DNA of 32,000 nucleotides from Geotalea daltonii FRC-32. Lineage in GTDB: Bacteria > Desulfobacterota > Desulfuromonadia > Geobacterales > Geobacteraceae. The translations under genes and the position numbers were made by a program. Positions within the stretch are counted from its first letter, which is position 1; the number at the start of each line of letters is the position of its first letter. Below are positions 4,013-19,267 of this stretch, piece after piece. The notes under the pieces were generated by a model. That model was not told the origin of the DNA and did not search any database. It saw nothing but the letters and a program-made list of their open reading frames with translations. Where the stretch lies: assembly GCF_000022265.1 (NCBI RefSeq), contig NC_011979.1, forward strand, positions 2,250,001 through 2,282,000. Reading direction: 5' to 3'.

Positions 4013-4035
4013 ATATTTCTCCTTTTTGGGAAAGG

Positions 4036-4070
4036 AGTATAACCTGCTAATGTTACAATTCCGTCACCTT
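4036..4070 (-). promoter_or_regulatory. Candidate Pho-box promoter of the psiE-like gene
   Basis: The minus strand reads GGTGACGGAATTGTAACATTAGCAGGTTATACT. The 10-mer TTGTAACATT is identical to the pstS site, followed by GCAG and a -10-like TATACT at the same 7-nt spacing. The distal half-site is degenerate (GTGAC). Confidence 0.45.
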
Positions 4071-4161
4071 CCGGTGAAAAATTGGAAACTGTTGACATTG
4101 GCGGGGGAAAAGGTATCTTCTGTCAGTTAAATTGGGCATTCAGTTGACGCAGGGAGTGAAC

Positions 4162-4752
4162 ATGGAAAAACTTTTGAACCATCTGAAGGGAAAATTCCTT
4201 GCCGGACTTTTTGTCGTTATCCCGGTGGGAATTACCATCTTCATCCTCATCTTCCTTTTCAACTTCGCTGACGGTATCCTCGGGTCCTATCTGGACAGCC
4301 TCTTCACTGCCATGACCGATGAGGAGATTCACTTCCCCGGGCTCGGTATGCTTACCGGTGCAGTGGTCATTTATCTTTGCGGGCTCTTGGCAACCAACGT
4401 GCTCGGTACCCAGCTTCTCAGATGGTGGGACAGGTTGCTCTCAAGGATTCCACTGGTGAAGTCGATATATACATCAAGCAAGCAACTCACCAAAGTCTTC
4501 AAAGAGGGTAAAACCTCCTATCGCCGGGCAGTGTTTGTTGAGTGGCCGCGCCGGGGAGTGCGGGCCATCGGTTTTGTCACCGCCGAAATAGTGCGGGACG
4601 GCGAGCCCCTGGTAGTGGTTTACGTGCCGACGATGCCCAATCCCACTTCCGGCTTTGCCCTCTTCTTCAAGCAGGATGAAGTTTTCGAAAGTGGAATGAC
4701 GGTGGAGGAGGCGGTCAAGTTCGTTGTTTCCGGTGGAATGGTGGTAAGTTAG
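4162..4752 (+). CDS. DUF502-family membrane protein
   Basis: The N-terminal LKGKFLAGLFVVIPVGITIFILIFLF..DGIL and IPLVKSIYTSSKQL pattern is typical of DUF502. I prefer ATG 4162 (AGGGAG RBS at 4151-4156) over the track start 4132. Confidence 0.75.
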   Translation: MEKLLNHLKGKFLAGLFVVIPVGITIFILIFLFNFADGILGSYLDSLFTAMTDEEIHFPGLGMLTGAVVIYLCGLLATNVLGTQLLRWWDRLLSRIPLVKSIYTSSKQLTKVFKEGKTSYRRAVFVEWPRRGVRAIGFVTAEIVRDGEPLVVVYVPTMPNPTSGFALFFKQDEVFESGMTVEEAVKFVVSGGMVVS

Positions 4753-4753
4753 A

Positions 4754-4798
4754 CCCCCTCCCGATCCCTCCCCCGCTGGGGAAGGGATCGGGAGGGGG
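4754..4798 (+). terminator. GC-rich perfect 16-bp stem hairpin (terminator or REP-like element)
   Basis: CCCCCTCCCGATCCCT (4754-4769) is the exact reverse complement of AGGGATCGGGAGGGGG (4783-4798). It lies right after the DUF502 stop. No clear U-tract follows. Confidence 0.5.
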
Positions 4799-4817
4799 CG
4801 GTGAATCCGGAGTGTGT

Positions 4818-6101
4818 ATGGGTGTTTTGTTACAGGTACAGACTGATTTCATGTCTGTCCCCGATGTTATGCAGTGGATAGATATGAACAGGCTCTCCTG
4901 CGTGGTGACCATAACTCTCGATGGCGACCGGGAAATGACTGTCTACATGGAGCATGGCACCATTATTTATGCCGCTTCCCAGCACAAGGGCTTGCGCCTG
5001 GGGGAATACCTGGCAAAGACAGGCGCCATGAGCGAGGTCCAGGTACTCCAGGCCCTGGGAGAAAGCCGCAAATCCGGTATCTCCCTTATCCGTTACCTGG
5101 CCGACAACAAGATAATAGGGCTTCCTGCTCTAACCGAGGTCTTCACCAATCTGGTGGAAGATCTGCTCATGGAAGTTGTTCAGGTGGGCATGGCTTCGGT
5201 AACCGTCACGTCTCCGCTCCCCGATTTTGTCCTGAACGGGCCGGTCCACCTGCAGACCGGCCAGCTGGTCTTCGATGCCGTGCGCAAGCTGGATGAACTG
5301 AACCGGGACCGCCAGCAGCGGGACGAGTCCATAGAAAAGATCAGCCGACGCCTCTACGAGGAAGATTTTCAGCTGCCGGTCCTGCCCAACATGCTCATGC
5401 AGCTCATTTCCATCATGGAGGACGAAAAATCCACATTCCAGGATATGGCCAGGATTATCATGACCGACCAGGTCCTCATTTCCAGGATTCTCAAGGTCGC
5501 CAACTCCCCGTTTTATGCGGCCACCGGTCAGGTTGATTCCATCCAGTTCGCCATCGTCCGCCTGGGCATGCGGGAGATCATGAACATCGTCACCGCTATC
5601 CAGATCAATTCCCTCAATTTCACCGATGTTTCCAAGGAAAAGCTGCAGGCGATCCTGGACGATGCCCTGAAGACCGCTTTCATGGCCAGCGGCCTGGCCC
5701 GCCATTGCCGGCTCGATCCGGAAGAGGCATTTCTGGGAGGGCTGCTCCTGGACCTGGGGAAGACGGTAATTCTCAGTGTCGCAAAAGACTTCAACATCAA
5801 TCAGGCGCTACTGGATGACCTGCTTAGCGAGCAGCATGCACAGATCGGCTCCCTCATTGCCAAAAAATGGAATTACCCCGAATCGATCCAGAATCTGATC
5901 CGTTACCATCACAAAAAGAATTTCGGCGGCATGGTCAACAGGATGATCGCCCTGGTCCAGGTCGCCGACAACTTCATCCAAACCGGTACCGACAAAGGCA
6001 TCGATCCGGAAGTAATGGCAGCCCTGGCCATTCCCCCCGAAATTTTAACCCAGACCTATGAAACCTCCATTGCTTCATTTAACCAGATAAAGGCTTCCTA
6101 G
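4818..6101 (+). CDS. DUF4388 (PATAN-like) N-terminal domain plus HDOD domain signalling protein
   Basis: The N-terminus has SVPDVMQWIDMNRLSCVVTI..GTIIYA, a DUF4388 pattern. The C-terminal half has LPVLPNMLMQLISIMEDEKSTFQDMARIIMTDQVLISRILKVANSPFY..GMREI, an HDOD pattern. ATG 4818 has GGAG 5 nt upstream. GTG 4812 is an alternative start. Confidence 0.75.
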   Translation: MGVLLQVQTDFMSVPDVMQWIDMNRLSCVVTITLDGDREMTVYMEHGTIIYAASQHKGLRLGEYLAKTGAMSEVQVLQALGESRKSGISLIRYLADNKIIGLPALTEVFTNLVEDLLMEVVQVGMASVTVTSPLPDFVLNGPVHLQTGQLVFDAVRKLDELNRDRQQRDESIEKISRRLYEEDFQLPVLPNMLMQLISIMEDEKSTFQDMARIIMTDQVLISRILKVANSPFYAATGQVDSIQFAIVRLGMREIMNIVTAIQINSLNFTDVSKEKLQAILDDALKTAFMASGLARHCRLDPEEAFLGGLLLDLGKTVILSVAKDFNINQALLDDLLSEQHAQIGSLIAKKWNYPESIQNLIRYHHKKNFGGMVNRMIALVQVADNFIQTGTDKGIDPEVMAALAIPPEILTQTYETSIASFNQIKAS

Positions 6102-6106
6102 ATTAC

Positions 6107-6137
6107 CAGGAAAGAACTAACCGCACGGGACACTAGG
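6107..6137 (+). repeat. Solo copy of the terminal sequence of the 31.3-kb palindromic element
   Basis: CAGGAAAGAACTAACCGCACGGGACACTAGG matches 31458-31486 (CAGGGAACTAATCTGCACGGGACACTAGG). The shared parts are a 15-nt exact core GCACGGGACACTAGG plus GAACTAA and CAGG. Confidence 0.5.
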
Positions 6138-6192
6138 CCCCCTCGTCGCCCATCTCTTCTTTGTTTTGCTTCTGCAAACATGGGCGGAAATT

Positions 6193-8202
6193 TTATTCAA
6201 TCCTGAATTTGGCCACCATTCCTTTTAAATCCATCGCCTGTTGGGAAAGTTCTTCTGCCGACATGACCAGCAACTCCACGGAGGAGAGATTTTCCTGGGC
6301 AAGTTCACTTATGTTCTCCACGGCCTTCACCACCATTTCCCCCCCTTTGCGTTGTTCAGCCGTGGCGTTGGCAACCTGCTGGGTCATTGAGGCCATGCCG
6401 TCAACTGATGCTACTATTTGCTTCGCAGACTTTGCCTGCTCCCGTGTGGCGAGGTTTACCTGCTGGGTGACCTGGTTCATATTATTCACGGCAAGCCGGA
6501 TCTGCTGGTTTCCCTGGGCTTGTTCACGGGCTGAACTGGCAACCAGCGCAGTACTCTGCCTCATTTTATCCACGGCTTTCAGCACTTGACTGGAGGCATT
6601 CGCATGCTCCGCCGTCACGGTGGAGATGTCGCTCATCAGGCTGCTCGTTTGCTCAATGCCCTTGACGATATTGGCGAGGGTGTTCCCAGCCTTGGCGGAA
6701 AGCTCCATGGATGCCCGGGCTTCCCTTGAGGCCTTCTGGCCATATTTTACGGAGTCTTCGGTATCCGCCTGGACCTCTTTGATTACCTGGCCGATTTCCT
6801 TGGTTGCCCCGAAGCTCAGCTTGGCCAGTTTGCGCACTTCGTCGGCCACGACGGCGAAACCGCGTCCTGCATCACCGGCCTGGGCCGCCTCAATGGTCGC
6901 ATTGAGGGCCAGCAGGTTGGTCTGGTCAGCTATATCGTTGATTACCTTGACGATGTTGCCGATTTCATTGGAGTGCTTCCCAAGGTTGACGATGGAAGCT
7001 GCTGTCAACTCGATCACTTCCGCCACCCGCTGCATCGCGGCAAGGGCCTCCTGGACAGCCTGCTGACCCGCATACCCTTCTTTTGCCGCCACTTTTGCCA
7101 CGTTGTCTGCGTCAGCCACATTCTTCGCCACCTGCCGAATGGAGACAGCCATTTGCTCAACGATCACGGCAGTCTCCCCCGCCACCTGCTGGAGTACCTG
7201 ACTGCTCCCCGCCACCTGCTCGTTCGAGACGGTCATTTTTTCAATAGTGGACGAGGTTTCGGACACTGAGGTCGCCATGATATCGGCGCTTCTTGCCACC
7301 TGCTCGCTGGACGCCCCCATCTCCTGGATGGAAGATGAAAATTCATCGGCATATCCTGCCAGTGAGTTGGCACTTTCTGCTACTGTCTGGATGGATGCCG
7401 CCATTTGCAACATGTTGCTGGAAGTCTCTTCACTGGCCGAAGCCTGGCTGTGAGCCGCCTTGGCCAACTGAGATGAATTGTCCGAGATTTGATTGGCAGC
7501 AGAGGCTACCTGCCCGGAGGTCTCCCGGATTTTGCCGACGATGGCACGCAGATTGTCCAGCATGCTATTCATTGAACGGCCCATTTCGCCTATTTCGTCA
7601 TCTGCCCGTATCTCCAGGGTTTCCGTAAGATCGCCGTCAGCTACTTTTTCCAGCATGCCCTTCAGCTTCCCAAGAGGGCGCAACGCCAGGCGGCGGAAGA
7701 GCAGGTAAAATACGAGGGATATGCCCACAATGGAAGCAGCTGCCAGACCCAGTATGATTAATTGAGATTCCCGCAATTTTGCCTTGCTGTTAAGGGTGCT
7801 CAATACGATCTTGGCCATGCCGATTTGTTCGCCGTTTTGCATGACTGGGGTGGTGAACTCCAGCAGGTACTCCTTCTCGGCTTTTGCCCTGGCTGCATGT
7901 TTTTCGTCAAGCTGGGTCAAGGCTTGCCCTTGTTTATCCAGAAACTGTGCATAGACGATTTCCGCGTCGTTGGCGGAAATATCCCGCACATAGTTCTCCA
8001 GGTAGATATAGTTGAAACTGACGATGGGCTCCGCACCAATCGTGGCGAGAAAATGAACGAGGTTCTTTCCCCTTCGGTTCATGTCCGCCATCACGGAATT
8101 TTTTTCATAAAACGTGAGGGAAACGCTCATTACAGAGAAGACCAGGACCAGGGTCGCCAGTATCCCAGCTAAAAATTTTCTGGTAAGATTCCACCTCTTC
8201 AT
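6193..8202 (-). CDS. Methyl-accepting chemotaxis protein with a small periplasmic sensor, HAMP and a very long signalling domain
   Basis: 669 aa. TM1 is at ~11-31, a ~117-aa periplasmic region follows, TM2 is at ~148-170, and HAMP contains [14 protein letters not shown]. The conserved hairpin tip is [37 protein letters not shown] near residue 443. GGAGGG RBS. Confidence 0.92.
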
Positions 8203-8234
8203 TTATCGAATCCCTCCACAAAAAGTGCTATGGC

Positions 8235-8286
8235 AATAAAACGCCCGGCATCCCTGTTCCAAACCCTGGAATAGAGGATGCCGGGC
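8235..8286 (-). terminator. Rho-independent terminator between the DUF3365 gene and the MCP gene
   Basis: An 11-bp perfect stem pairs GCCCGGCATCC (8243-8253) with GGATGCCGGGC (8276-8286). On the minus strand it is followed by GTTTTATT (complement of 8235-8242). Confidence 0.65.
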
Positions 8287-8301
8287 AAAAAATTCAGCTA
8301 A

Positions 8302-9039
8302 TTATTTCACCGGTATGCTGACACTGATGGCCCCGCGCACATCACCTTCCTTATAGCCTTCCTTCTTTCTCCCTGAGATGTCCATGTCACCGGCAGGAGA
8401 ACCATGGCAGGTGAGACACATCTGGGTAATATAGACAGGCGCCAGGTAACGGAAGGTCTTTTTGCCGCCGCTGGTTGTCTGTTCTGAATATGTTTTGCTG
8501 CGCACCCATCCATTTTCGAATTTCTTCAATACATCTGTTTCGAATTTGTCCGGTTTATTGGCAGGATTGCGATATTTAAGGCTGGTCTGCTTTACGGTAA
8601 TACCGGTTTTTTTCAAAAACTTATCTCCCGTCTTCTTTCCGTATATTGCCGGAGAAAAACCTTTAAAAGCTATTCCCGGCTGGTTGATCTGGGGTTGAGC
8701 TTCGGTGACAACTTCTTTTGCCGAGTTATGCAGTTTCTGCAGAATGCCGCTGTTATAGTCTGAAGTGTTCAGGTTTTTAATGTCCAGGCCGGTCATTTTT
8801 TTAAAATCATCGGCAAGCTGCGCTTCATAGACTGCAGCTGTAAATCCCTTATCGGCTTTGCCTGACGTATTTATGAGGGATTGATTGTTGGCGATTACGG
8901 CTCGCCCTTTCAGCAAATAGTCGGCAAGGAGCTTTGCCAGCTTTTCATCATTTTGGGCGGCAAACAGATTTTGCGCGAAAAGAAGTGTTGCTGAAACAAG
9001 TCCCATCACCAGTACCACCGAAACCCTTTTTTTCATCAT
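8302..9039 (-). CDS. Periplasmic DUF3365 (Tll0287-like) c-type heme protein
   Basis: Signal peptide MMKKRVSVVLVMGLVSATLLFAQNLFA, a single CxxCH motif (CLTCHG), and family-like KYRNPANKPDKFE and GYKEGDVRGAISVSIP. I take the start at ATG 9039 with a strong AAGGAGG RBS, not the track start 9087. Confidence 0.8.
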   Translation of the reverse strand: MMKKRVSVVLVMGLVSATLLFAQNLFAAQNDEKLAKLLADYLLKGRAVIANNQSLINTSGKADKGFTAAVYEAQLADDFKKMTGLDIKNLNTSDYNSGILQKLHNSAKEVVTEAQPQINQPGIAFKGFSPAIYGKKTGDKFLKKTGITVKQTSLKYRNPANKPDKFETDVLKKFENGWVRSKTYSEQTTSGGKKTFRYLAPVYITQMCLTCHGSPAGDMDISGRKKEGYKEGDVRGAISVSIPVK

Positions 9040-9324
9040 CGATGTATCCTCCTTATTTTTGCCTGCAGTTGCCATCATCTCCGGCAATCAACCAGGACGG
9101 CCATTTCATTCCATCAACTCGAAGAGAAATGCATTGTTAATCATTAAATCCTATTCCCACGTGGGAGCTTACAATTTTCTCAGGATGATTAAAACTCTTT
9201 TTTATGGAAACTTCGATTAGCAGTGTTCTTTTTGTCCAGACGGGTCCTGCCATGTTCAGCAAAGGTGTTGAAAATGCTTCAATTCCACCCGGACAGACCC
9301 TCTTTCCAATCCTCCTCTATTTTT

Positions 9325-9388
9325 ATGATCATGCTCATTTTTGTCCTTGCATCTTCCTTTGTTATTATTTATTGTGATCATGGTCATA
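9325..9388. promoter_or_regulatory. Candidate TetR operator pair
   Basis: TGATCATGCTCAT (9326-9338) and TGATCATGGTCAT (9375-9387) match at 12/13 positions and lie 49 bp apart. Each sits in a pseudo-palindrome (ATGA-N6-TCAT) just upstream of or overlapping the TetR start. Confidence 0.35.
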
Positions 9389-10026
9389 TGATGGAGACGC
9401 AAATGCGCATCAGCGAGCAGGCAAAACAGGAGAGCCGGACACGGCTTCTGGAAAAGGCTGCAGAGTTATTCGTAAACAAAGGATTTGAGGATACCACCAC
9501 CCGAGACATTGCCCAAGCGGCTGGGTTGGCTGCTGGTACCATGTTCAACTATTTCCCCAGCAAGGAAACCCTTGCCATGACCATGGTCACGGAAGCTTTG
9601 GAAAACGGCATCGGCGATTTTAACCGCCGGCGTACCGGAGAAGAAGACCTGGCCGAGGAGCTGTTCCTGTTCATCAGCTCAGGACTGCGCCGGCTGCGGC
9701 CGTTGCGCCACTTTCTCGGCCCGGTCCTGGAGCGTTCCCTGAGCCCCTTTCCCCGGAAGAACATCTGTCATGAAGGAGAGGCTGCTCGTCTGCAGCACCT
9801 GAATGCCGTGCAGGCCATTATCGAGCGGCACGGCTTCACGGAGGCTCCCGATGAGGTAACCATAACCATTTACTGGTCCCTCTTTCTCGGCATTCTCGCC
9901 TTCTGGACCAGTGACGAATCGGTGAATCAAGAGGCAACCCAGGCTCTGATAGACTACTCCATCCGGACCTTCGTTCACGTGATCAGCGGTAGCGGATCGG
10001 AAGGGAGTGTACACGATGCAGTGTGA
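9388..10026 (+). CDS. TetR/AcrR-family transcriptional regulator
   Basis: N-terminal HTH: SRTRLLEKAAELFVNKGFEDTTTRDIAQAAGLAAGTMFNYFPSKE. The track ORF (9223) carries an implausible hydrophobic extension. ATG 9388/9391 or ATG 9403 (GGAGA 5 nt upstream) are the likely starts. Confidence 0.85.
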   Translation: MMETQMRISEQAKQESRTRLLEKAAELFVNKGFEDTTTRDIAQAAGLAAGTMFNYFPSKETLAMTMVTEALENGIGDFNRRRTGEEDLAEELFLFISSGLRRLRPLRHFLGPVLERSLSPFPRKNICHEGEAARLQHLNAVQAIIERHGFTEAPDEVTITIYWSLFLGILAFWTSDESVNQEATQALIDYSIRTFVHVISGSGSEGSVHDAV

Positions 10027-11470
10027 AAGCGGCTATAGGACCGATTCCGCCGGCAGAACCGGCAGTACCCTCACCAAAGAGACCGAGAGGCAACTGGCGG
10101 AATTGATAGAGCGGGTTGCTGGTAAGAAGCCGCCGGTCAGTTCTTACTCACGCATGTGGATCATGGGGTCGACCCAGGCGAAGGTTGCCATGACCTTCTT
10201 GGCATCATGGGTTCAGTGCCTGTTTTCCGATGCCGACCGAAAGGAGCGGATGCGGAACGAGGCGCGGCTGAAGGCCGCCCTGGAGCTGTTGGGGACCATG
10301 GGGTACCTGCGGGGTGCCGTCATGAAACTGGGACAGCTGCTGGCAAACCTGCCGGAGGTGATCCCGGAAGAGGTGGCGGAGATATTGGGGAAGCTCCATT
10401 TCCAGGCGCCGGCCATGCATTTTTCCATGGTTCGCGAGGTCTTTCTCGACGAGTTCAGACGGGAGCCTGAAGAGATCTTTGCCTCCTTCGAACGCAAGGC
10501 TTTTGCTGCGGCTTCCCTGGGGCAGGTGCACCGGGCGCGCCTCCACACCGGCGAAGAGGTGGCGGTGAAAATCCAGTATCCCCACATTGCCAGGACGATC
10601 CGGGCAGACATGCGCAACCTGCGTCTGTTGCTGCAACCCATGCGCATGACCGAGGATTGGCCGAACCTTCTGGATAAGCTGGCAGACGTGGAGCAGATGC
10701 TTCTGATGGAGGCCGATTACCAGCAGGAAGCCGCCTTCGGTACCGAGATACGGAGCCATTTCTCTCCGGAGGAGGGTATAGTGGTTCCCCGGGTGTTCGG
10801 GGAATACTCAACAGGCCGAGTCCTGACCACCGAATATCTGCGCGGACTGCACCTTGACCAGTTTCTCGCCCTCGATCCCGATCAGGCTCTGCGGGATCAT
10901 TTCACCCACCTTTACACTGCAGCGACCATGCGGCTTCTCTACCGGGTCCACTGGCTCATGGCCGATCCCAATCCCGGCAACTATATCTTCATGGAGGACG
11001 GTCGGCTGGGAATCGTCGATTTCGGCTGTACCCGCGTCCTTTCGGAAGATGAATGGTCTCTCCAGCGCCAGGTGGAAGACGCTGTCTTGAAGGGTGACGA
11101 GGCGGAAATGAAAAGGCTCGTTGCCAAAGCCAGCCTCTATGAAAGCGCTGAAGAAATGGGACCGGAACGCCTGGAGGTTGTCGGACGTTCCATCCGGTGG
11201 ATGTTGGAGCCGTGGCAGACGGAGGGGCTATTCGATTTCGGCGACCGGGATTTTTTCTGCCGAGGTGTCGATGCGCTGATGGATGTGGCGAGGAGGCGCT
11301 ATACCCGCGGCATGCCGGTCCATATCTGGAGCACCCGTTTCATTCTGGGGGCGCGGGCAATCGTCTACCGGCTTAAGGGGCGCTGTGATTTCAGAAAGAT
11401 CTATGACAAGGAATCGGGCGGAGCTGACAGAACACGAATTCATGCAGCTGATGAGGTTTTCAATGACTGA
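10016..11470 (+). CDS. ABC1/UbiB-family atypical protein kinase, paralog 1
   Basis: ABC1 hallmarks: FAAASLGQVHRARL, EEVAVKIQYP, EADYQQEA, catalytic loop MADPNPGN and VDFG. ATG 10016 lies 8 nt after AAGGGAG and overlaps the TetR stop (10026) by 11 nt. Confidence 0.88.
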   Translation: MQCESGYRTDSAGRTGSTLTKETERQLAELIERVAGKKPPVSSYSRMWIMGSTQAKVAMTFLASWVQCLFSDADRKERMRNEARLKAALELLGTMGYLRGAVMKLGQLLANLPEVIPEEVAEILGKLHFQAPAMHFSMVREVFLDEFRREPEEIFASFERKAFAAASLGQVHRARLHTGEEVAVKIQYPHIARTIRADMRNLRLLLQPMRMTEDWPNLLDKLADVEQMLLMEADYQQEAAFGTEIRSHFSPEEGIVVPRVFGEYSTGRVLTTEYLRGLHLDQFLALDPDQALRDHFTHLYTAATMRLLYRVHWLMADPNPGNYIFMEDGRLGIVDFGCTRVLSEDEWSLQRQVEDAVLKGDEAEMKRLVAKASLYESAEEMGPERLEVVGRSIRWMLEPWQTEGLFDFGDRDFFCRGVDALMDVARRRYTRGMPVHIWSTRFILGARAIVYRLKGRCDFRKIYDKESGGADRTRIHAADEVFND

Positions 11471-12881
11471 TGAAACGCTTATCAAGGCAATGCCCAAAGA
11501 TGCGACCATCGACCCGACCGGGGAGCGGCTGGCAGAACTGGTGAGCAGCATTGCCGGCAGGAAAATGCCGGTCTCCTCCTTTTCCCGCATGTGGAACCTG
11601 GGTTCGGCCCACGCCAGGGTCACCCTGGGTTACTTTGCCTACTGGCTCCGCAGTCGCTTTGCCGATGATGATGGGAAGCAGCGCCTTAAAAACGAGGCGC
11701 ACCTGGCGGCAGCCCTGCAGTTATTCTCCACCATGGGATATCTGCGGGGTGCAGTGATGAAGGTGGGGCAGATGCTGGCCAACCTGCCGGAGATTGTCCC
11801 GGAGGAATTTGCCGAAGTCCTTTCGGCGCTCCATTTCGAGGCCCCTCCCATGCATTATGCCATGGTCAGGGATGTTTTCCTGGACGAGTTCGGGCGAGAG
11901 CCGGAGGAACTGTTCGCTTCCTTCGACCGTCAGGCTTTCGCCGCCGCTTCCCTGGGGCAGGTACACCGCGCCCGGCTGCATAGCGGGGAGGAAGTGGCGG
12001 TAAAGGTCCAGTATCCCCACATCGCCCGGACTATCAAGGCAGACCTGCGCAATCTCCGAATTCTGCTGCAACCCATGTGTCTCACCAGCGACTGGCAGAA
12101 CACCCTGGACAAGCTGACGGATTTGGAGCACGTGCTGCTCATGGAGACCGATTACGAAAATGAGGCCCGTATCAGCAACGAGACGAGGCAGTTGTACGGC
12201 GACGAAGACCAGGTGGTGGTGCCGAGGGTCCATGAACAGTATTCCACGAAGCGGGTTTTGACGACGGACTATCTGGCCGGCAAGCACCTTGAGCAACTCC
12301 TGGCTGAAAATCCCAGCCAGGAGGAGCGTGATCATTTCTGTACGCTCATTTCCAAGGCCATTTACAGGATTTATTACCGTCTGCACCGGGTGCATGCCGA
12401 CCCGCACCCCGGCAACTTCATATTTATGGAGGATGGACGCCTGGGGCTCATCGATTTCGGCTGCTCCCGGGTCATCACCGATGATGAGTGGCGGCTGATG
12501 ATGGCTATCGAGCAGGCCGGCATCGACGGGGATGAAGAGGCTTTGAGCCGTTTGATTGCCGAAGCATGCCTGTGCAAGAACCCCGGGGAGATCGAACCGG
12601 ACCGGCTGGAAACGGTGCGGCGCGGGGTCGATTGGCAGCTGAAGCCTACGTTGACTGAAGGGCTCTACGATATGGGGGACCGGGAGGAATTTCTGCGAGG
12701 CGTCACCAGTTTAATGGAGATGACCCGCAAAGGATATACCCGCGGTTCCCCCTTGTACCTCTGGACCAATCGCTTGTGCCTCGGTGCCAGGGCAGTGGGG
12801 TACCGCCTGAAAGGACGCGTCCATCACCAGAAGATCCAGCGGCAGGAATTTGCCGCCGTAAAAGGAGATGCTCCATGTTGA
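11463..12881 (+). CDS. ABC1/UbiB-family atypical protein kinase, paralog 2
   Basis: Same motifs with the canonical catalytic loop HADPHPGN and IDFG. ATG 11463 overlaps the paralog-1 stop (11470) by 8 nt and gives an N-terminus colinear with paralog 1. ATGs at 11403, 11442 and 11451 are alternatives. Confidence 0.85.
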   Translation: MTDETLIKAMPKDATIDPTGERLAELVSSIAGRKMPVSSFSRMWNLGSAHARVTLGYFAYWLRSRFADDDGKQRLKNEAHLAAALQLFSTMGYLRGAVMKVGQMLANLPEIVPEEFAEVLSALHFEAPPMHYAMVRDVFLDEFGREPEELFASFDRQAFAAASLGQVHRARLHSGEEVAVKVQYPHIARTIKADLRNLRILLQPMCLTSDWQNTLDKLTDLEHVLLMETDYENEARISNETRQLYGDEDQVVVPRVHEQYSTKRVLTTDYLAGKHLEQLLAENPSQEERDHFCTLISKAIYRIYYRLHRVHADPHPGNFIFMEDGRLGLIDFGCSRVITDDEWRLMMAIEQAGIDGDEEALSRLIAEACLCKNPGEIEPDRLETVRRGVDWQLKPTLTEGLYDMGDREEFLRGVTSLMEMTRKGYTRGSPLYLWTNRLCLGARAVGYRLKGRVHHQKIQRQEFAAVKGDAPC

Positions 12882-13561
12882 GACTACGCGATGTAACCAA
12901 GACCTATGACGGAAAGTCGGAAGTGACGGCCCTTGCAGGGATCACCCTCACTATCGATCCGGGCGAAATGGTGGCGATCATGGGGCCGTCCGGCTCCGGC
13001 AAGTCAACCTTGCTCAACCTTTTCGGAGGGCTGGATGTTCCTACCTCGGGCCAGGTCATGGTGGCGGGGAAGGATCTGGCGGGGGAAAACGAGAAGGAAC
13101 GGTCGCTGTTTCGCCGCTCGAAAATTTCTTATATTTTCCAGGCCTATCACCTGATGCCGACCTTGAAGGTAAGCCAGAACGTGGCGCTGCCCCTGCATCT
13201 GGCCGGCGTATCTTCCACCGAGATCAGTCGCAGGGTTGCCCAGGCCCTGAAGGACGTCGGCTTGGAGTCGCGGGCGAATCACCTTCCCGACGAGCTTTCC
13301 GGCGGCGAGCGCCAGCGGGTCGCCATTGCCCGGGCGCTGGTGACCGGGGCGCCGCTCCTTTTGGCGGACGAGCCCACCGGCAACCTGGACAGCGCCCGTG
13401 GAGAGGAGATCCTGAAGCTGCTCCGTACCATCCACCGTGAGCGGGGCACCACCATCGTCATGGTCACCCACGACCACCACGCCGCTTCCGCCTGCGACCG
13501 CCTGATAAGCCTGCGGGACGGCAGGGTTGAGGGGGATGGCGCCGTTGGAGGTGGGAAATGA
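12875..13561 (+). CDS. ABC transporter ATP-binding protein (LolD/MacB/YbbA type)
   Basis: Walker A GPSGSGKST, signature LSGGERQRVAIARAL, Walker B LLLADEPTGNLD. ATG 12875 has an AAAGGAGA RBS and overlaps the kinase-2 stop by 7 nt. Confidence 0.92.
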   Translation: MLRLRDVTKTYDGKSEVTALAGITLTIDPGEMVAIMGPSGSGKSTLLNLFGGLDVPTSGQVMVAGKDLAGENEKERSLFRRSKISYIFQAYHLMPTLKVSQNVALPLHLAGVSSTEISRRVAQALKDVGLESRANHLPDELSGGERQRVAIARALVTGAPLLLADEPTGNLDSARGEEILKLLRTIHRERGTTIVMVTHDHHAASACDRLISLRDGRVEGDGAVGGGK

Positions 13562-16113
13562 ATTTCCTGCTTCGCACCCTGTCTCTCTCCTACGTCAGGC
13601 GCCACCTGATGAAGACGCTGCTGACCCTGCTGGGTGTCGTGGTCGGCGTCGCCACCTTCAGCGCCATTCGCAGCGCCCAGGGAACACTGGTCAAGGGAAT
13701 ACGCTCCACTGTCGACCGTGTCGCCGGCAAGGCCCATCTGCAGATAACCATGGCCGGCGGAGTGCCGGAGGAGGCCCAGGAGAAGGTCCGAACCCTTCCG
13801 GGTATCCGGGCCGTCTCACCGGTCATCGAACAGATCGTGGTGCCGGAGCGGGGCGAACTGGGGAGCCTGATGGTGATCGGCATTGACCTCCTGGGGGACC
13901 GGGAGATGCGGGAATACGGTTTCGAGGGAGATGATGCCGACCTGGACGATCCGCTGCTGTTCCTCGCCCAGCCCGACTCGGCCATCTTCACCCGCGACTT
14001 TGCCCAAAGGGCGGGGCTAAAGACCGGTGACACCCTTCCGGTGCGGGTATCTACCGGGGTGAAGCGGGTTGCGGCACGGGGACTCCTTTCCGCCAAGGGT
14101 TTTGCCGAGGCCTTCGGCGGCAACCTGATGGTGGTGGATGTTTATGCCGCCCAGGAGCTATTCGGCCGGGGCCGCCGCTTCGACCGCATCGATGTGCGGC
14201 TTGCGGAGGGGACAACGGTGGCCCAAGGGACGGCAACGCTTCAGAAGGTCCTGGGGCCTGCCTATGGCGTGGAGACGCCGGACCGTCGGAGTGCACAGAT
14301 GGAGCAGACGGTGAACAATTTCGTCGTCGGCTTCAATGTTACCAGCGGCTTTGCCCTTTGCATCGGTACCTTTCTCATCTTCAACGCCTTCAACGTGGCG
14401 GTGAACCGCAGGCGGCGCGACATCGGCACCCTGCGCGCCCTGGGGGCCACGCCGCGGCAGGTGCAGTCCCTCTTTCTCTTGGAGGCGCTGGTAATCGGCC
14501 TGGTCGGGGGTGCTGTCGGCTGTCTGGCTGGAGGTGCCATTTCCGAAGGGTTTCTCCGCATGATGGGGCAGACGACGGAAACGGTGTACGGGATTGCCTC
14601 CTCCGGAAGCTCCGTTATGTTTCCCCCTGGAATCGTCCTTGAGTCCATGCTGCTCGGCGTTGTCGCATCTCTCGTGGGAGCTTGGAATCCAGCGCTTGCC
14701 GCCTCCCGGATTTCTCCGACTGAAGCCTTTGCCAAAGGGGCTTTCCAGGCAAAGATTGCCGGAAGCCATGGGCTCCGAATCGCAGCCGGCGCCGTTGCTT
14801 TCGGCTGCGCCATTCTCATTGCCCTTTTTCCCCCTTTTGGCGGGAACCCACTCATCCTATCCGTGATGGTCCTCGGCGGAATCGGAATGGTGCTCCTCGT
14901 CGGCCCGTTTTCCCGCGTGCTCCTGCGTTTCTTCGCCCCGCTTCTTATGGGGTTTTCGCCGGTTGCGGGACGTCTCTGTTCCAATGCCCTCCTGGGAGCT
15001 CCCCGCAGGACCTCCGGCACGGTCATGGCCATGGCGCTTTCACTTACATTCGTTCTCGGATTCGGCGGATACATGGGATCTATGACAGAATCGATGGCCA
15101 AGTGGATGGATGATGTCCTCACCAGCGACCTTTACGTGCGGGCGTCCGCCAACTGGTCGCGCCCCGATTTCCTCTTTCCGGGAACATTGCGGCAGGAACT
15201 TCAGAAGGTGTCGGGCGTGCGGGCAGTTGAATCGGTGAGGACGATCCGCCCCATGTACCAGGGACATCAGATCGTAATCAGCTCCTTCGAGGTTGAGCCG
15301 GTACTGAAGCGGATCGAGTACGAATATTTCAGCGGCAACGAGCAGTCCATACTCCAGGGGGTCGGCAGGCAGGGGATGTGCTTCGTTTCGGATAATTTTC
15401 AGAGCCGCTTCAACCTGGGCGTTGGGCAGGAAGTCGAACTGATAACCCCCCAGGGGCCCGTGCGGTTTCCCATAGCCGCCGTTGTGCGCGATTTTGGCTC
15501 GGACCAGGGTTCCATTTATATGGACCGGAGTACTTATCTGCGCCATTGGCAGGATGACCGAGTGGATATCTATGACGTGTCAGTGGTTGGCGGAGCTGAT
15601 GTGGGCCAGGTCCGCAACCTGATTCGGGCGCAGTTGGCGGGGAAGATGCCGGCTCTGATCTCGACCAGGCAGGAGTTCGTTGCCGAGATCAAGAAGGCTA
15701 TCGATGCCTTTCATGCCCTGACACGGGTCACCCTGTTCCTTGCTTTGGCGGTGGCGTTCCTGGGCATCGTCACATCGCTTCTAATTTCAGTGTCGGAACG
15801 GACCCGGGAAATCGGCGTATTGAAGGCACTCGGCGCGATCCCGTCGCAAATCGTCCGGAGCGTCGTGGCGGAGGCACTCGTCATCTCCCTGGTGTCGGTC
15901 TTCGTGGCAATCCCTGCCGGAAATCTTTTTGCTGCCTTCATGGAGGGGGCGGTGGCAAGGTTCTTCACCGGCTGGAGCATGCCCCACCTCTATCCATGGA
16001 ATATCCTGATCCAGCTTTTCATCGCCCTTCCGTTCGTATCCGCGTTTGCCGCCTGGGTTCCGGCGCGCCAGGCGGCACGGCTGAAGATAACCGAGGCAAT
16101 CGAGTACGAATGA
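13558..16113 (+). CDS. Fused double-FtsX ABC permease (YbbP/MacB-like, 851 aa)
   Basis: Two FtsX-type modules (RRRRDIGTLRALGATPRQV and RTREIGVLKALGAIPSQI), each preceded by a large extracytoplasmic domain. ATGA start/stop overlap with the ATPase gene. Confidence 0.9.
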   Translation: MNFLLRTLSLSYVRRHLMKTLLTLLGVVVGVATFSAIRSAQGTLVKGIRSTVDRVAGKAHLQITMAGGVPEEAQEKVRTLPGIRAVSPVIEQIVVPERGELGSLMVIGIDLLGDREMREYGFEGDDADLDDPLLFLAQPDSAIFTRDFAQRAGLKTGDTLPVRVSTGVKRVAARGLLSAKGFAEAFGGNLMVVDVYAAQELFGRGRRFDRIDVRLAEGTTVAQGTATLQKVLGPAYGVETPDRRSAQMEQTVNNFVVGFNVTSGFALCIGTFLIFNAFNVAVNRRRRDIGTLRALGATPRQVQSLFLLEALVIGLVGGAVGCLAGGAISEGFLRMMGQTTETVYGIASSGSSVMFPPGIVLESMLLGVVASLVGAWNPALAASRISPTEAFAKGAFQAKIAGSHGLRIAAGAVAFGCAILIALFPPFGGNPLILSVMVLGGIGMVLLVGPFSRVLLRFFAPLLMGFSPVAGRLCSNALLGAPRRTSGTVMAMALSLTFVLGFGGYMGSMTESMAKWMDDVLTSDLYVRASANWSRPDFLFPGTLRQELQKVSGVRAVESVRTIRPMYQGHQIVISSFEVEPVLKRIEYEYFSGNEQSILQGVGRQGMCFVSDNFQSRFNLGVGQEVELITPQGPVRFPIAAVVRDFGSDQGSIYMDRSTYLRHWQDDRVDIYDVSVVGGADVGQVRNLIRAQLAGKMPALISTRQEFVAEIKKAIDAFHALTRVTLFLALAVAFLGIVTSLLISVSERTREIGVLKALGAIPSQIVRSVVAEALVISLVSVFVAIPAGNLFAAFMEGAVARFFTGWSMPHLYPWNILIQLFIALPFVSAFAAWVPARQAARLKITEAIEYE

Positions 16114-16200
16114 CCCTTTCTCCCCCTTAAGAAAGGGGGCTGTGGGGATTTTTCTGCGATAGTATAAATCCCCCTGAATCTCCCTTTCCTAAAGGGGGAC
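16114..16200. repeat. Two short GC-rich REP-like hairpins, possibly the operon terminator
   Basis: CCCCCTT (16122-16128) pairs with AAGGGGG (16133-16139), and a T-run follows at 16149-16153. CCCTTT (16182-16187) pairs with AAAGGG (16191-16196). Both have the same CCCC..GGGG flavour as the 4754 hairpin. Confidence 0.4.
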
Positions 16201-16256
16201 TTGGTCCGGCGGCAGTTTGCGAACATCGGCAAAACCTGTGGATAAGGAGGTACACA

Positions 16257-16664
16257 TTGGCGGAAATAGCGATAAAAATAGGCGGAGTCCTCTCCGCCCT
16301 GGTCGGCATCGGTCACTGTTTTTTCTACCGTGGTTTCGGCTGGCAGGAAGATTTCGAGAAAACCCGATTGCTGACTGCCCAGGTGCTTTACACAATCCAT
16401 CTGTTTCTTATCCCCATGTTTTTGTTCTTTGCCTACGCTTCCCTCTTCCATACGAGTGAACTGGCTGGAGGAAGCCCGCTCGGTATTGCCGTCAGCACCT
16501 TCTACGCACTTTTCTGGTTTTTTAGGCTTTTCTGGCAGATGGTCTATTTCAAGCCGGCCCAGATAACCGGATTCGAGAAGCTCTTGCCGTTGCATTACTT
16601 TCTGATGGTCTGCTTCGTTGCTTTAACCGCGGCCTATGCTCTTCCGCTAGTATGGCAGCGGTGA
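16257..16664 (+). CDS. Small hypothetical integral membrane protein (135 aa, ~4 TM)
   Basis: TTG start 6 nt after a strong AAGGAGG (16244-16250). Hydrophobic, helix-rich translation. No family recognised. Confidence 0.55.
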   Translation: MAEIAIKIGGVLSALVGIGHCFFYRGFGWQEDFEKTRLLTAQVLYTIHLFLIPMFLFFAYASLFHTSELAGGSPLGIAVSTFYALFWFFRLFWQMVYFKPAQITGFEKLLPLHYFLMVCFVALTAAYALPLVWQR

Positions 16665-16735
16665 TGATACAAGGGAAATTCGGCTGAAGTTCCCTTTCCC
16701 TGTCGGTTTGCCAAATATCAGCTATGGAGACAGTC

Positions 16736-17536
16736 ATGCACAAAAAAAACGGATTATCGATTACAACTGCGGCATTGTTGCTCTTAGTCTTCACCACCAC
16801 CCTGGCCCTGGCGGCACCCGATGCCCGGGCACTGCTCAAAGAGTCTGAGGCCCGCCACCGGACGAAGACCCAGCAGTATTCCGGCAATCTTGCCGTGGTC
16901 AACAAGGATGGCAAAGTCCGCAAAAAGGGCTGGAAAAGTTACCGGCAGGGCTACGCCGGTGACGCCAAGACCCTGACCCGGTTCACCGAACCGCCGGAGG
17001 TGAAGGGGGTCGGCTTCCTCTCCATCTCCCGCCCCGCCGGACAGAATGCCGACCAGTGGCTCTATCTCCCCTCCATGAAACGGGAACGGCGCATTGCCGC
17101 CCAGGATCGGGATGCGTCATTCGTCGGTACCGATTTCAACTACGAGGACATGGAGGAGTTCGACCACGAAAAGCACAAAGTGGCCATGCAAGGAGAACAG
17201 ACCGTGGATGGGCAGCTTTGCTATGTGATTACGGCGATTCCACTGGAAAGCGCCGGCAAGTCGGTCTACGAGAAGAAGACCCTTTACCTGCGCAAAGATA
17301 TCCTCTACCTGTTGCGTATGGACCTTTACCGGAAAGGTGACAAGCAGCCCGGCAAGATATTCAGCCTTTCCGACCTGCAGAATGTGGAGGGGCACTGGGT
17401 CGCCAAGAAATGGGAAATGAGCGACCTGAAAAAGGGGAGCAAGACGACGGTGATCTTGAAGGATGTGACCTTCGACAAGCCCCAGCCGGCAAACCGCTTT
17501 ACATTGCAGAACCTGAACCGTGAAGGTGGCGATTGA
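16736..17536 (+). CDS. LolA-like outer-membrane lipoprotein-sorting family protein (periplasmic)
   Basis: Signal peptide ..TTTLALAAPDA. The core QWLYLPSMKRERRIAAQDRDASFVGTDFNYEDME matches my recollection of the LolA_like family signature. ATG 16736 (GGAGA 5 nt upstream) is preferred; ATG 16724 is an alternative. Confidence 0.75.
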   Translation: MHKKNGLSITTAALLLLVFTTTLALAAPDARALLKESEARHRTKTQQYSGNLAVVNKDGKVRKKGWKSYRQGYAGDAKTLTRFTEPPEVKGVGFLSISRPAGQNADQWLYLPSMKRERRIAAQDRDASFVGTDFNYEDMEEFDHEKHKVAMQGEQTVDGQLCYVITAIPLESAGKSVYEKKTLYLRKDILYLLRMDLYRKGDKQPGKIFSLSDLQNVEGHWVAKKWEMSDLKKGSKTTVILKDVTFDKPQPANRFTLQNLNREGGD

Positions 17537-18774
17537 ACCATGTTTGCCTTTCCCTTTGCCTGATCCTGCTGCTCGTCTGTCCTTATTCAGCTGAAGCGGC
17601 GGAATATTCAGGCTATGCCGAGATCAAGGGATTCCTCTATCCCGAACGGACCCACGGCCACAGTCCGTCGGTGGTGGGCTGGGGGACGCTGTTCAACAAG
17701 GTGGAGCAGCGGCTGGGGGAGGCTCAGCTGACCGGATCCCTGCGGGGGGAGTGGCTTTCCACCGATGATCGGGGAGGGCGCCTGTTCGATCCGATCGACC
17801 GGCACATCCGCCGCCCGCCTTTGTCGGTGCAGGATTTGTGGCTGCGCTTGCCCCTGTCGCCTGACGTGGATCTGCAACTGGGGCGCTTTCAGTTGGGGTG
17901 GGGCAAGACCGACGGGTATTCTCCGGCCGATGCCTTTCTCCCCCGTGATCTGACTGATCCCTTTGCCGACGAGAAACTGCCCCTCTGGGCGGTACGGCTG
18001 TCTGGACAGAGGGGCTCCGTGCGCTACGAAGCGGTCGGCAGCCCAATTACCACACCCTGGCGCCTTCCCGTACTCGGCAGCAGGACTGCTCCGCTCAATG
18101 GGGAGATTCCCGGCACCGTGACACTGGAAGAAAGGGACAGCTCGCCGCCGGTGCCCGGATTCGGCGCGGTGCGGCTGTTGGCCACCCTGGACCAGTGGGA
18201 TGTGGGGGGCTGGGTGCGCGCCGGTATCCGTCCCGCTCCCCTCCTGGAGTTCCAGGTTGATCAGGCTCTGGAGACTGCCAACGGGCTGGTGATTCCGGTG
18301 GAGCGCCGCTATGTGGAGGAAGAAGGGGTTGGGATCGAGCTTTCGCGGGTGGTGGGCTCCTGGGTGATCCGGGGGGAGGTTGCCGGGCTCTTTTCCCGTG
18401 ACAGGGAGCTGGGCAATGCGGTCATTGGGGCGCTGAGCGCCGAAAAAGGCTTCGGCGACGGAACCTTGCTCATGACCCTGGCCGGGAATGCCATCGATCC
18501 GCCGGTGGATGAAATCCTGCTCTTCGACCGGGCGATCCTCCCGGCGCTCATTACCGCCTGGACCCGTACCGAGGAGTGGGGAGAGTGGAAGGCGGTCTGG
18601 AGTGTGGGGCTTAAGCATGGGGATGGTCTCGTGAAAGCTGAGGTTTCCTACAACCTCACCGATGTCTGGAAGCTGACCGTGGGAGGGGAGGCCCCTTACG
18701 GATCAGGCCAGGGGGGATTCGGCGCCCTGGATGCAGCCAGGCGCCTGCGTATGGCGGTTCGCCGGAGCTGGTGA
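17533..18774 (+). CDS. Putative outer-membrane beta-barrel protein (DUF1302/AlgE-like LGRxxxxWGK motif)
   Basis: Signal peptide MNHVCLSLCLILLLVCPYSAEA, the motif LQLGRFQLGWGKTDGYSPADAF, alternating-pattern strands and a C-terminal aromatic residue (..VRRSW). The TTG start overlaps the LolA-like stop (TTGA). Confidence 0.55.
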   Translation: MNHVCLSLCLILLLVCPYSAEAAEYSGYAEIKGFLYPERTHGHSPSVVGWGTLFNKVEQRLGEAQLTGSLRGEWLSTDDRGGRLFDPIDRHIRRPPLSVQDLWLRLPLSPDVDLQLGRFQLGWGKTDGYSPADAFLPRDLTDPFADEKLPLWAVRLSGQRGSVRYEAVGSPITTPWRLPVLGSRTAPLNGEIPGTVTLEERDSSPPVPGFGAVRLLATLDQWDVGGWVRAGIRPAPLLEFQVDQALETANGLVIPVERRYVEEEGVGIELSRVVGSWVIRGEVAGLFSRDRELGNAVIGALSAEKGFGDGTLLMTLAGNAIDPPVDEILLFDRAILPALITAWTRTEEWGEWKAVWSVGLKHGDGLVKAEVSYNLTDVWKLTVGGEAPYGSGQGGFGALDAARRLRMAVRRSW

Positions 18775-18811: not shown

Positions 18812-19267
18812 ATGAGCATGTTAGGCATTGACAGAGTGAAGGAACTTTTTCACGCGACATCATCTTCCGTCAGCTTGGGGACCAGCAGCAAAGGGGAGTT
18901 GAACATTGCTCCTGTGGGCAGTGCCTTCATGCCGGACGAAAGCAGCATAATCCTGTTGCGGGGGCCGTTGCGACAGACCTATCTGAATTTGCAGGAAAAT
19001 CCTGAAGCAGTGTTTCTGGTCGCGAACAAACATCCGTTCCGCTGGCTCAAATTTTTCGTGACCGGAAAGTTCGGCGCATCTTTCGGATATCGGATACACA
19101 CCCGGTTGAGAGAGGTCAGGCCCGTGACCAGTGCGGAAACCGAAGCCATTCTAAAGAAGCGCTTCGGCCTGGTAGCCGGGTCGAGGGGAGGCAGGAAAAT
19201 TCAGGCCACTCTGAAGCATATGATGATCTTCGATATTACGCAGATAAGGGAAGTAACGCCTTTTTAG
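18812..19267 (+). CDS. Pyridoxamine-5-phosphate-oxidase-like (FMN-binding split-barrel) family protein
   Basis: 151 aa. The pattern LGTSSKGELNIAPVGSAF..DESSIILL resembles PNPOx-like proteins. Strong GAGGAGG RBS. Confidence 0.45.
   Translation: MSMLGIDRVKELFHATSSSVSLGTSSKGELNIAPVGSAFMPDESSIILLRGPLRQTYLNLQENPEAVFLVANKHPFRWLKFFVTGKFGASFGYRIHTRLREVRPVTSAETEAILKKRFGLVAGSRGGRKIQATLKHMMIFDITQIREVTPF

Follow-up and report, generated by a model that had tools for sequence, protein, structure and literature searches.

What do ABC1/UbiB-family proteins do when they are encoded beside a transporter that appears to face the outer membrane? The biochemical role of these atypical kinases/ATPases is unsettled, above all in bacteria without ubiquinone, and Geobacter-type bacteria use menaquinone, not ubiquinone. 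The question is raised by a 32,000-nucleotide stretch of the genome of Geotalea (formerly Geobacter) daltonii FRC-32 (the window), in which genes for a TetR-family repressor, two ABC1 proteins (K1 and K2), an ATP-binding cassette (ABC) ATPase, a double-FtsX permease, a periplasmic LolA-like protein and an outer-membrane (OM) beta-barrel all lie on the forward strand. We give about an even chance to the reading that this is one TetR-repressed operon, in which two individually conserved modules have been joined to encode a trans-envelope machine for a hydrophobic molecule. Judged from gene order in relatives, the two modules are joined only in Geobacterales-like lineages, and the join is stable and tight where it is present. 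The genomic link of such a transporter to ABC1 ATPases is lineage-restricted and previously undescribed: the literature searched contains no paper combining LolA-like, FtsX and ABC1 proteins, and no mention of Geob_2019–2025. We regard the locus as a promising lead, drawn from sequence comparison, to what bacterial ABC1/UbiB proteins do.

Organization of the Cluster and Its Promoter Region

A first-pass annotation of this DNA had listed the same genes on one strand and reported that neighboring reading frames overlap. All of the genes are present, as assigned by Pfam and, for the barrel, by an AlphaFold model (Table 1), and each overlap was confirmed in the sequence. The TetR stop codon (TGA, 10024–10026) lies beyond the K1 ATG at 10016, the K1 stop (TGA, 11468–11470) beyond the K2 ATG at 11463, and the K2 stop (TGA, 12879–12881) beyond the ATPase ATG at 12875; the ATPase and permease genes have an ATGA in common (13558–13561), as do the LolA-like and barrel genes a TTGA (17533–17536). 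As the annotation had it, the cluster appears to run in one direction, translationally coupled, behind a TetR-type promoter/operator region.

The repressor sites that had been flagged at 9326 and 9375 proved to be genuine 14-bp palindromes, and a relaxed form of the motif has five matches in the window against 0.11 expected. Among 28 related loci, most have the palindrome (consensus GTGAGCGCGCTCAC) in two copies with a spacing of approximately 48 bp, where copy 1 lies just 5′ of a TTGAC-like −35 element and copy 2 abuts a TATAGT-like −10 element, the promoter having the form TTGAC(N17)TATAGT. Paired, conserved palindromes around the −35 and −10 elements are the arrangement classically seen with autoregulated TetR repressors, and the predicted protein, with an N-terminal TetR helix-turn-helix domain and palindromic putative operators at its own promoter, is consistent with this type. 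A third match to the operator pattern (ATGACCATGGTCAC), at 9577–9590 within the TetR coding sequence, may be a chance occurrence or an auxiliary site. The TetR start codon proposed earlier, at 9388, is an in-frame alternative, but the ATG at 9403 is more likely because it is preceded by GGAG, gives the conserved N-terminus MRISEQ and yields a protein of 207 residues, like those of relatives (207–208 residues).

Table 1. Features of the cluster, with positions in the window
Feature	Position	Strand	Evidence and remarks
TetR operator 1 (ATGATCATGCTCAT)	9325..9338	+	Predicted; palindrome RTGAnCnnGnTCAY just 5′ of the −35 element; position kept in most related loci
Sigma-70-like promoter (TTGTCC, 16 nt, TATTAT)	9341..9368	+	Consensus scan; between the two operators
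TetR operator 2 (GTGATCATGGTCAT)	9374..9387	+	Predicted; palindrome between the −10 element and the TetR start; conserved in relatives
TetR-family repressor, 207 aa	9403..10026	+	TetR_N 1.9e-15 (56.8 bits), TetR_C_23 1e-8
K1, ABC1/UbiB-family atypical kinase/ATPase, 484 aa, ADPNPGNY subtype (Geob_2019)	10016..11470	+	PF03109 1.6e-56; COQ8B 4.9e-38
K2, ABC1/UbiB-family atypical kinase/ATPase, 472 aa, ADPHPGNF subtype	11463..12881	+	PF03109 4.6e-62; Rv3197/MABP-1 7.4e-41; COQ8B 7.9e-39
ABC ATPase, LolD/MacB nucleotide-binding domain type, 228 aa	12875..13561	+	ABC_tran 1.3e-37
Fused Type VII ABC permease, 851 aa, 10 transmembrane (TM) helices, two MacB-type periplasmic domains (Geob_2022)	13558..16113	+	FtsX x2, MacB_PCD x2
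G/C-rich nested hairpins (CCCCCTTAAGAAAGGGGG, TCCCTTTCCTAAAGGGGGA)	16114..16200	+	Directly after the permease stop; fold −57 kcal/mol, z = −1.9
Small membrane protein, 135 aa, 3–4 TM helices (Geob_2023)	16257..16664	+	TTG start, ribosome-binding site AAGGAGG; open reading frame (ORF) in a 610-bp "gap," overlooked in the first-pass annotation
Periplasmic LolA-like protein, 270 aa	16724..17536	+	PF17131 1.4e-53; type I signal peptide, no lipobox cysteine
OM beta-barrel, 413 aa, signal peptide, ends ...RRSW; divergent DUF1302 relative	17533..18774	+	AlphaFold2 (AF2) model, predicted local distance difference test (pLDDT) 80, predicted template modeling score (pTM) 0.79 (31-sequence alignment)
PNPOx-like split-barrel protein, 151 aa (Geob_2026)	18812..19267	+	PNPOx_N 5.2e-5, under the Pfam cut-off
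Cytoplasmic hormone-sensitive-lipase (HSL)-type esterase, 307 aa	19296..20219	+	Abhydrolase_3 1.2e-58; GESAG HSL subfamily 8e-86, under cut-off

K1, the permease, the small membrane protein and the PNPOx-like protein match ACM20375, ACM20378, ACM20379 (Geob_2023) and ACM20382 exactly, and K2 is 100% identical to a G. daltonii NCBI protein named "protein kinase, ABC1 domain-containing." Locus tags other than Geob_2023 were deduced from consecutive accession numbers.

Two Separable Modules

A scan with an alignment of permease sequences, covering one genome per GTDB species, yielded 53 loci (L001–L053), which were searched by tblastn with all proteins of the window; naive ORF calling was too noisy for the flanks of high-GC loci without ABC1 and was not used there. 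The LolA-like and barrel genes lie directly 3′ of the permease gene in 37 of the 40 loci with enough downstream sequence (36 found by the script, plus L035). Among the 45 loci with enough upstream sequence, TetR and ABC1 genes lie directly 5′ of the ATPase gene in 29, including L043 from G. toluenoxydans, which the script's coverage filter had dropped. The order ABC1-ATPase-FtsX-LolA-like-barrel, on whose conservation the first-pass annotation had hung its proposal, is kept in these 29, so that the gene set does occur together in related genomes, but not in the other 16. These counts rule out the chance adjacency of two unrelated operons.

The joined loci come from Geobacter, Geotalea, Geomonas and Citrifermentans, from Desulfuromonadaceae, Pelobacter and Desulfocapsaceae, and from unclassified "Deltaproteobacteria"; the exception, L048, is binned as Pedobacter. 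The ABC1 and ATPase genes, which overlap in the window, are spaced by 20–53 nt in close relatives, and the 4-nt overlap of the LolA-like and barrel genes is kept across phyla (in Bdellovibrionales, G. uraniireducens, G. metallireducens and a Geobacteraceae metagenome-assembled genome, MAG). The uncharacterized module of pump, LolA-like protein and barrel occurs widely in Desulfuromonadia, Acidobacteriota, Bdellovibrionota and Myxococcota.

Several observations weigh against a single machine under one repressor. The 16 loci without TetR or ABC1 belong to Acidobacteriota (including Thermoanaerobaculia and Holophagales), Bdellovibrionales, Anaeromyxobacter, an unclassified bacterium and one Geobacteraceae genome (L050), and most of those with informative downstream sequence hold the full ATPase-permease-LolA-like-barrel set (L023, L029 and L032 do not). 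In a converse scan, metagenomes were searched with an ABC1 alignment and then by tblastn; the eight closest loci outside the joined lineages (L059–L066, 41%–56% identity to K2) have an orthologous TetR gene (30%–61% identity) immediately 5′ of ABC1 in seven cases, L064 retaining only a TetR fragment at the contig end, and tblastn found no ATPase, permease, LolA-like or barrel homolog near them, several of the contigs being short. The genes 3′ of these outside TetR-ABC1 pairs vary, and encode DUF6463 small membrane proteins, a PNPOx_N protein, an alpha/beta hydrolase or a ferredoxin-domain (Fer4) protein. Since the transporter set occurs without ABC1, and TetR-ABC1 without the transporter, the cluster is a lineage-specific join of two modules; because the modules are separable, their adjacency may reflect shared regulation alone. 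The earlier view of the ABC1 proteins as an integral part of the transporter is contradicted by the same loci. In addition, transcription in this strain might stop or be attenuated in the hairpin-rich spacer of 143 nt that follows the permease gene, and both transport direction and cargo are inferred by analogy.

The main rival, which we consider somewhat unlikely, makes co-regulation the whole of the link: a self-contained TetR-ABC1 stress module (e.g. one with a MABP-1-like ATPase for drug or xenobiotic tolerance) would have been set upstream of an unrelated transporter in a Geobacterales ancestor, the two sharing a promoter and having no mechanistic connection. TetR-ABC1 pairs that stand alone in many metagenomic loci, with variable genes downstream, are as this rival would have it, and so are the transporter modules found alone in other phyla and, within Geobacteraceae, in L050. 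It accounts less well for the persistence of the join over many species-level genomes with tight or overlapping junctions, for the recruitment of a second ABC1 paralog to the same cluster at least twice and at different positions, and for PNPOx and esterase accessory genes that recur with both modules.

One further locus has a similar arrangement. L075 encodes a 906-residue double-FtsX/MacB_PCD permease (2265–4985) 5′ of a distant TetR-ABC1-hydrolase set. It has no adjacent ATPase gene and looks like an ADOP-type orphan permease, genes for which are abundant in Acidobacteria, and it was not counted as independent support for an ABC1/FtsX link; the adjacency could be a separate case of such a link or a product of chance.

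The ABC1/UbiB Proteins K1 and K2

K1 and K2 are 59% identical to each other and score far above the PF03109 cut-off (191.6 and 209.8 bits versus 22.9). The catalytic motifs are intact in both and conserved in 18 relatives: KxGQ in GAVMK(L/V)GQ, the Ala-rich AAASLGQVH, the lysine of EVAVK, the ADP(N/H)PGN loop, and DFG in (V/I)DFGC. Neither protein has a hydrophobic segment above the TM threshold in hydropathy analysis, by which measure both are soluble or peripheral. Neither is UbiB proper, with scores of approximately 165 bits versus 487.55 for TIGR01982 and 111–118 versus 667 for PRK04750, and no C-terminal TM helices. The best PDB sequence matches (1e-31 to 1e-41) are Rv3197/MSMEG_1954 (MABP-1) and COQ8A/B, which likewise have ABC1 domains without C-terminal TM helices. 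In contrast to this likeness, K1 and K2 reach only 121.5 and 159.8 bits against the 800 required by the MABP-1 model (NF050082), so the relation is one of homology only. Tolerance to macrolides, which are hydrophobic drugs, is conferred by the inducible mycobacterial ATPase Rv3197/MABP-1 (PMC6208485), eukaryotic COQ8 has its place in a membrane prenyl-lipid pathway, and yeast UbiB proteins govern the membrane distribution of coenzyme Q (CoQ) (PMC8346625).

The "twin" kinases of the first-pass annotation are not a general trait of the cluster: the tandem pair occurs only in G. daltonii and, judged by spacing, in G. toluenoxydans, and most relatives carry one ABC1 gene. K2-like (ADPHPGNF) and K1-like (ADPNPGNY) proteins form two older subtypes, one of which occupies the upstream slot in most genomes. 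In a Geobacteraceae MAG (L139), a K2-like gene lies upstream and a K1-like gene after the barrel gene, followed by the same esterase gene as in the window. Two different arrangements with a recruited second ABC1 gene speak for a genuine functional tie, short of proof.

The first-pass annotation had gone further and proposed a dedicated pathway for quinone or isoprenoid-lipid trafficking, with the ABC1 kinases as obligatory cytoplasmic components that supply pump (FtsX-type), carrier (LolA-like) and barrel. The tie of ABC1/UbiB proteins to prenylquinone biology, through the COQ8 matches and the role in CoQ distribution (PMC8346625), speaks for such a pathway, as do the synteny kept in Geobacterales-like genomes and the second arrangement that holds both ABC1 paralogs within the cluster. 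We nevertheless consider it quite improbable. The transporter module has no ABC1 gene at all in the 16 loci of other lineages, the closest ABC1 relatives outside Geobacterales keep TetR without a detectable transporter homolog nearby, K1 and K2 fall far below the UbiB equivalog cut-offs, and a gene set controlled by TetR is more suggestive of induction than of housekeeping. The cluster contains no gene for quinone or isoprenoid biosynthesis, and no evidence points to a quinone as the cargo.

A wider form of the idea, doubtful in our estimate, is that UbiB/ABC1 ATPases work in partnership with a Type VII ABC extractor: at the cytoplasmic face, K1 and K2 would mobilize or tag some hydrophobic molecule (a prenylquinone, possibly, or a different membrane lipid), which the YbbP-like pump, LolA-like protein and DUF1302-like barrel would carry to the OM. 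If true, ABC1 proteins would for the first time have a defined cellular role in a bacterium lacking ubiquinone synthesis, and the UbiB-dependent redistribution of lipids in mitochondria would have a prokaryotic counterpart. Because a conserved, repressor-controlled operon ties ABC1 to a lipid-extraction machine, and some relatives are genetically tractable, the role of ABC1 is directly testable here.

The ATPase and the Type VII Permease

The permease and its ATPase belong to the Type VII (MacB/FtsX) superfamily, with two FtsX matches (128.7 bits) and two MacB_PCD matches (70.7 bits) in the permease and ABC_tran in the upstream gene. Hydropathy analysis of the permease gives nine clear TM segments (residues 19–37, 256–274, 305–323, 358–376, 406–424, 431–449, 727–745, 769–787 and 816–834) and a weaker additional one near 484–505, from which 10 TM helices are deduced. 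The AF2 model (pLDDT 75) has its best PDB fold match in E. coli YbbP (9GE6; TM-score 0.62/0.65 over approximately 890 columns, E 6e-20); 9GE6 and 9GE7 head the ranking, followed by LolE, BceB and MacB. The modeled protein has the features of the YbbP type, i.e. 10 TM helices, two four-TM units, two periplasmic domains and a TM5–TM6 hairpin. Neither phmmer nor a 25-sequence profile found a sequence link to YbbP in the PDB, and fold comparison alone revealed the resemblance.

YbbAP-TesA (PDB 9GE6–9GE8; PMC12646458) is similar in that its ATPase is encoded separately, ahead of one fused permease that has 10 TM helices and two Porter/Sabre periplasmic domains. However, sequence identity is only 15%–16%, the partner there is the TesA esterase, a periplasmic lipid hydrolase, instead of a LolA-like protein and an OM barrel, the esterase of the present cluster has no signal peptide, and YbbAP has no TetR or ABC1 genes. 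LolCDE-LolA-LolB also combines a Type VII extractor, a LolD-like ATPase and a LolA-fold periplasmic protein, but the present permease is fused with 10 TM helices, LolB lipoprotein is lacking and the acceptor would be a barrel. Scores against the LolCDE models are low (lolCE, 100.3 versus 362 bits; LolD, 231.9 versus 307.75; LolE cut-off not reached). The nearest NCBIfam models of the ATPase are LolD, DarD, FtsE and MacB, all under cut-off. The genes between 8302 and 21354 encode neither the HlyD/adaptor domain nor the OEP domain that would be expected for MacAB-TolC, leaving room for an unlinked adaptor. The ADOP model (TIGR03434) is likewise not reached (96.1 versus 622.3 bits), and here an ATPase gene overlaps the permease start.

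The Outer-Membrane Unit

The LolA-like protein is a clear member of the LolA_like/TP_0789-like family (PF17131, 181.8 bits versus 30), with an N-terminal hydrophobic signal ending in ALA-AP. Its nearest solved relatives, PDB 9tp6 (8.4e-34), 4z48 and 3bk5, are all uncharacterized, and in the literature searched TP0789 appears only in a proteomics study. A match to DUF1329 (PF07044) is just above the cut-off (27.5 versus 23.1 bits) and spans only 66 residues. The barrel itself has no Pfam match, including none directly to DUF1302 (PF06980), and a PDB sequence search was empty; PDB matches to its model are all porins, AlgE or OprB, i.e. generic 16–18-strand porins at TM-scores of approximately 0.45–0.5. 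A barrel-family profile run against 1.84 billion representative proteins retrieved 883 relatives at E ≤ 0.001. DUF1302 is matched in Pfam by 26 of the 42 more distant barrel relatives (best E 2e-15), and hhalign aligned the barrel profile with that of the distant relatives at a probability of 100% (E 1e-54). Since kin of the barrel match DUF1302 and the LolA-like protein matches DUF1329, the two would be a divergent DUF1329/DUF1302 pair.

Natural single-chain fusions of the two proteins occur in P0380, P0382 and P0384, which are clean, and in a fourth sequence (P0393) that is garbled at its C-terminus. Each fusion begins with a signal peptide and a LolA_like domain, which a linker of approximately 30–50 residues, rich in Pro/Ser/Gly/Arg, connects to a barrel without its own signal peptide; the layout recalls LptD, in which a periplasmic lipid-binding domain is followed by a barrel. 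On this Rosetta-stone evidence the LolA-like protein and the barrel are likely to form one OM unit, and the former, which the first-pass annotation took for a periplasmic carrier, may be docked on the barrel instead of shuttling freely. The structural hypothesis that follows is of an OM translocon with a docked lipid-binding domain.

DUF1302 and DUF1329 proteins are known from clusters in Shewanella, Pseudomonas, Delftia and ORM2a, together with a BNR (Ycf48-like) protein and an RND/MMPL exporter; there too, an OM barrel and a LolA/LolB-like periplasmic protein are tied to an inner-membrane exporter, and the clusters are connected with hydrophobic compounds. By contrast, their engine is a proton-driven RND/MMPL protein rather than an ATP-driven Type VII ABC transporter, and the present cluster lacks BNR/Ycf48 and has proteins of PF17131 and an unnamed barrel family. 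A similar concept, published in silico only, is that of Borrelia BBJ23–BBJ29, read as ATP-driven delivery of a nonpolar ligand to the OM (PMC13078400). The combination of Type VII ABC transporter, LolA-like protein and OM barrel is similar, but the Borrelia cluster has an Omp85-family barrel, a 4-TM homodimer permease and TPR chaperones, with neither TetR nor ABC1.

These systems bear on two further explanations. The pump, LolA-like protein and barrel might constitutively export an endogenous envelope component (a subset of lipoproteins or a special lipid), as the Lol and Lpt systems do. Price et al. proposed export of a cell-wall or envelope component for the DUF1302, DUF1329, BNR and RND/MMPL proteins, which are cofit in several proteobacteria (10.1101/072470); the Borrelia cluster has been interpreted likewise (PMC13078400), and the permease is similar to LolCE and LolF. 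A repressor with paired predicted operators argues instead for conditional expression, the LolCE and LolD equivalog cut-offs are not reached, and the module is patchy rather than universal within clades, so that we think constitutive OM biogenesis unlikely.

Alternatively, the barrel and LolA-like protein could capture hydrophobic substrates such as hydrocarbons or fatty esters at the OM and deliver them inward. G. daltonii degrades aromatic hydrocarbons, as uptake would suit. Mutations in DUF1302/DUF1329 genes leave Pseudomonas putida defective on fatty esters and Tween 20 (10.1101/2020.07.04.188060). In a Desulfobacterota culture that degrades benzene, a DUF1329 protein ranks fourth in protein abundance, and phenanthrene supports only poor growth of a Delftia DUF1329 mutant (PMC13101534). 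However, characterized Type VII ABC transporters never import, all of them working outward or by mechanotransmission (PMC12646458), and the operon has no catabolic genes. The module is also present in Geomonas and Acidobacteriota, lineages that, by assumption, may not degrade hydrocarbons. Uptake is the explanation that we hold to be very improbable.

Proposed Mechanism

The preferred explanation is that module A, in which the gene of the TetR repressor is translationally coupled to those of COQ8/UbiB-like ABC1 ATPases that keep all catalytic motifs, serves together with module B, which would comprise an ABC ATPase dimer, a fused 10-TM Type VII (mechanotransmission) permease and an OM complex of the LolA-like protein with the DUF1302-like barrel. 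A hydrophobic ligand would free TetR from the two palindromic operators around the promoter and so derepress the operon. The envelope machine would then, probably, move a greasy molecule out of the inner membrane: the pump would hand it to the LolA-like protein docked on the barrel, and the barrel would insert it into the OM or release it across the OM. By analogy with MABP-1 in macrolide tolerance and yeast UbiB proteins in CoQ distribution, the ABC1 ATPases could work from the cytoplasmic side, their target being the same hydrophobic compound, a related one, or membrane stress. Accessory roles would fall to the small membrane protein, the PNPOx-like protein and the esterase.

The part of the first-pass model that fits best is the trans-envelope role of pump, LolA-like protein and barrel, which agrees with the YbbP-like architecture, the DUF1329/DUF1302 kinship and the natural fusions. 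Repressor control and the recurrent PNPOx-like and esterase genes make an inducible response to xenobiotics or toxic lipids likelier than housekeeping quinone trafficking. The module would bring YbbAP, the DUF1302/DUF1329 pair and Lol/Lpt-like transfer, all partly understood, into a single view of the passage of hydrophobic molecules through the periplasm.

Accessory Genes and Flanking Regions

The hairpins directly after the permease gene are possibly an attenuator or an RNA-stabilizing element. They were considered as a dispersed repeat and rejected, with no other copy in the window and a folding z of only −1.9. For the small membrane protein that follows, G. metallireducens has an ORF of the same size in the equivalent slot (L140, 14730–15137), and in L002 a 66%-identical copy lies 3′ of the barrel gene. 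It matches no Pfam family, even at E = 10. An assignment to DUF6463, which follows TetR-ABC1 in L085 and L099, was discarded, as BLASTP found no similarity and Pfam no match.

Beyond the barrel gene, the PNPOx-like and esterase genes follow in the same direction after gaps of 37 and 28 nt, with strong ribosome-binding sites, and the co-directional run stops at a convergent gene at 20266; from this spacing the operon probably extends through both. The PNPOx-like protein is 56% identical to the product of a gene between ABC1 and ATPase in L056, a Deltaproteobacteria MAG with the order TetR, short ABC1 (302 residues), PNPOx-like, ATPase, permease, LolA-like and barrel (5317–12600), and a PNPOx_N gene is also found 3′ of TetR-ABC1 in L111. 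The esterase gene adjoins the cluster in L004/L139 and L016. Stand-alone TetR-ABC1 pairs are often followed by DUF6463, PNPOx_N or alpha/beta hydrolase genes (L085, 8331–8735; L099, 5541–5957; L111, 6780–7283; L075, 8311–9636), echoing the accessory genes of the window.

Divergently upstream (6193–9087, reverse strand) are genes for a secreted or membrane protein with a Tll0287-like sensor domain (PF11845) and a methyl-accepting chemotaxis protein. Homologs were not found beside the cluster in L001–L053, save for a weak partial Tll0287 match in L052, which makes a connection of these genes with it improbable. Downstream, genes for a DUF6268 protein (28171–29085) and a Peptidase_MA_2 protein (30119–31078) lie approximately 8 kb from the cluster in the window, and in relatives such genes are close 3′ of it (L139, 19871–20782; L140, 19149–19973), which suggests an insertion here. 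From 20266, the intervening DNA encodes an IS110-family transposase (24167–25366), an aspartyl-protease/PDZ protein, a short-chain dehydrogenase/reductase (SDR), a GyrI-like protein and methyltransferases.

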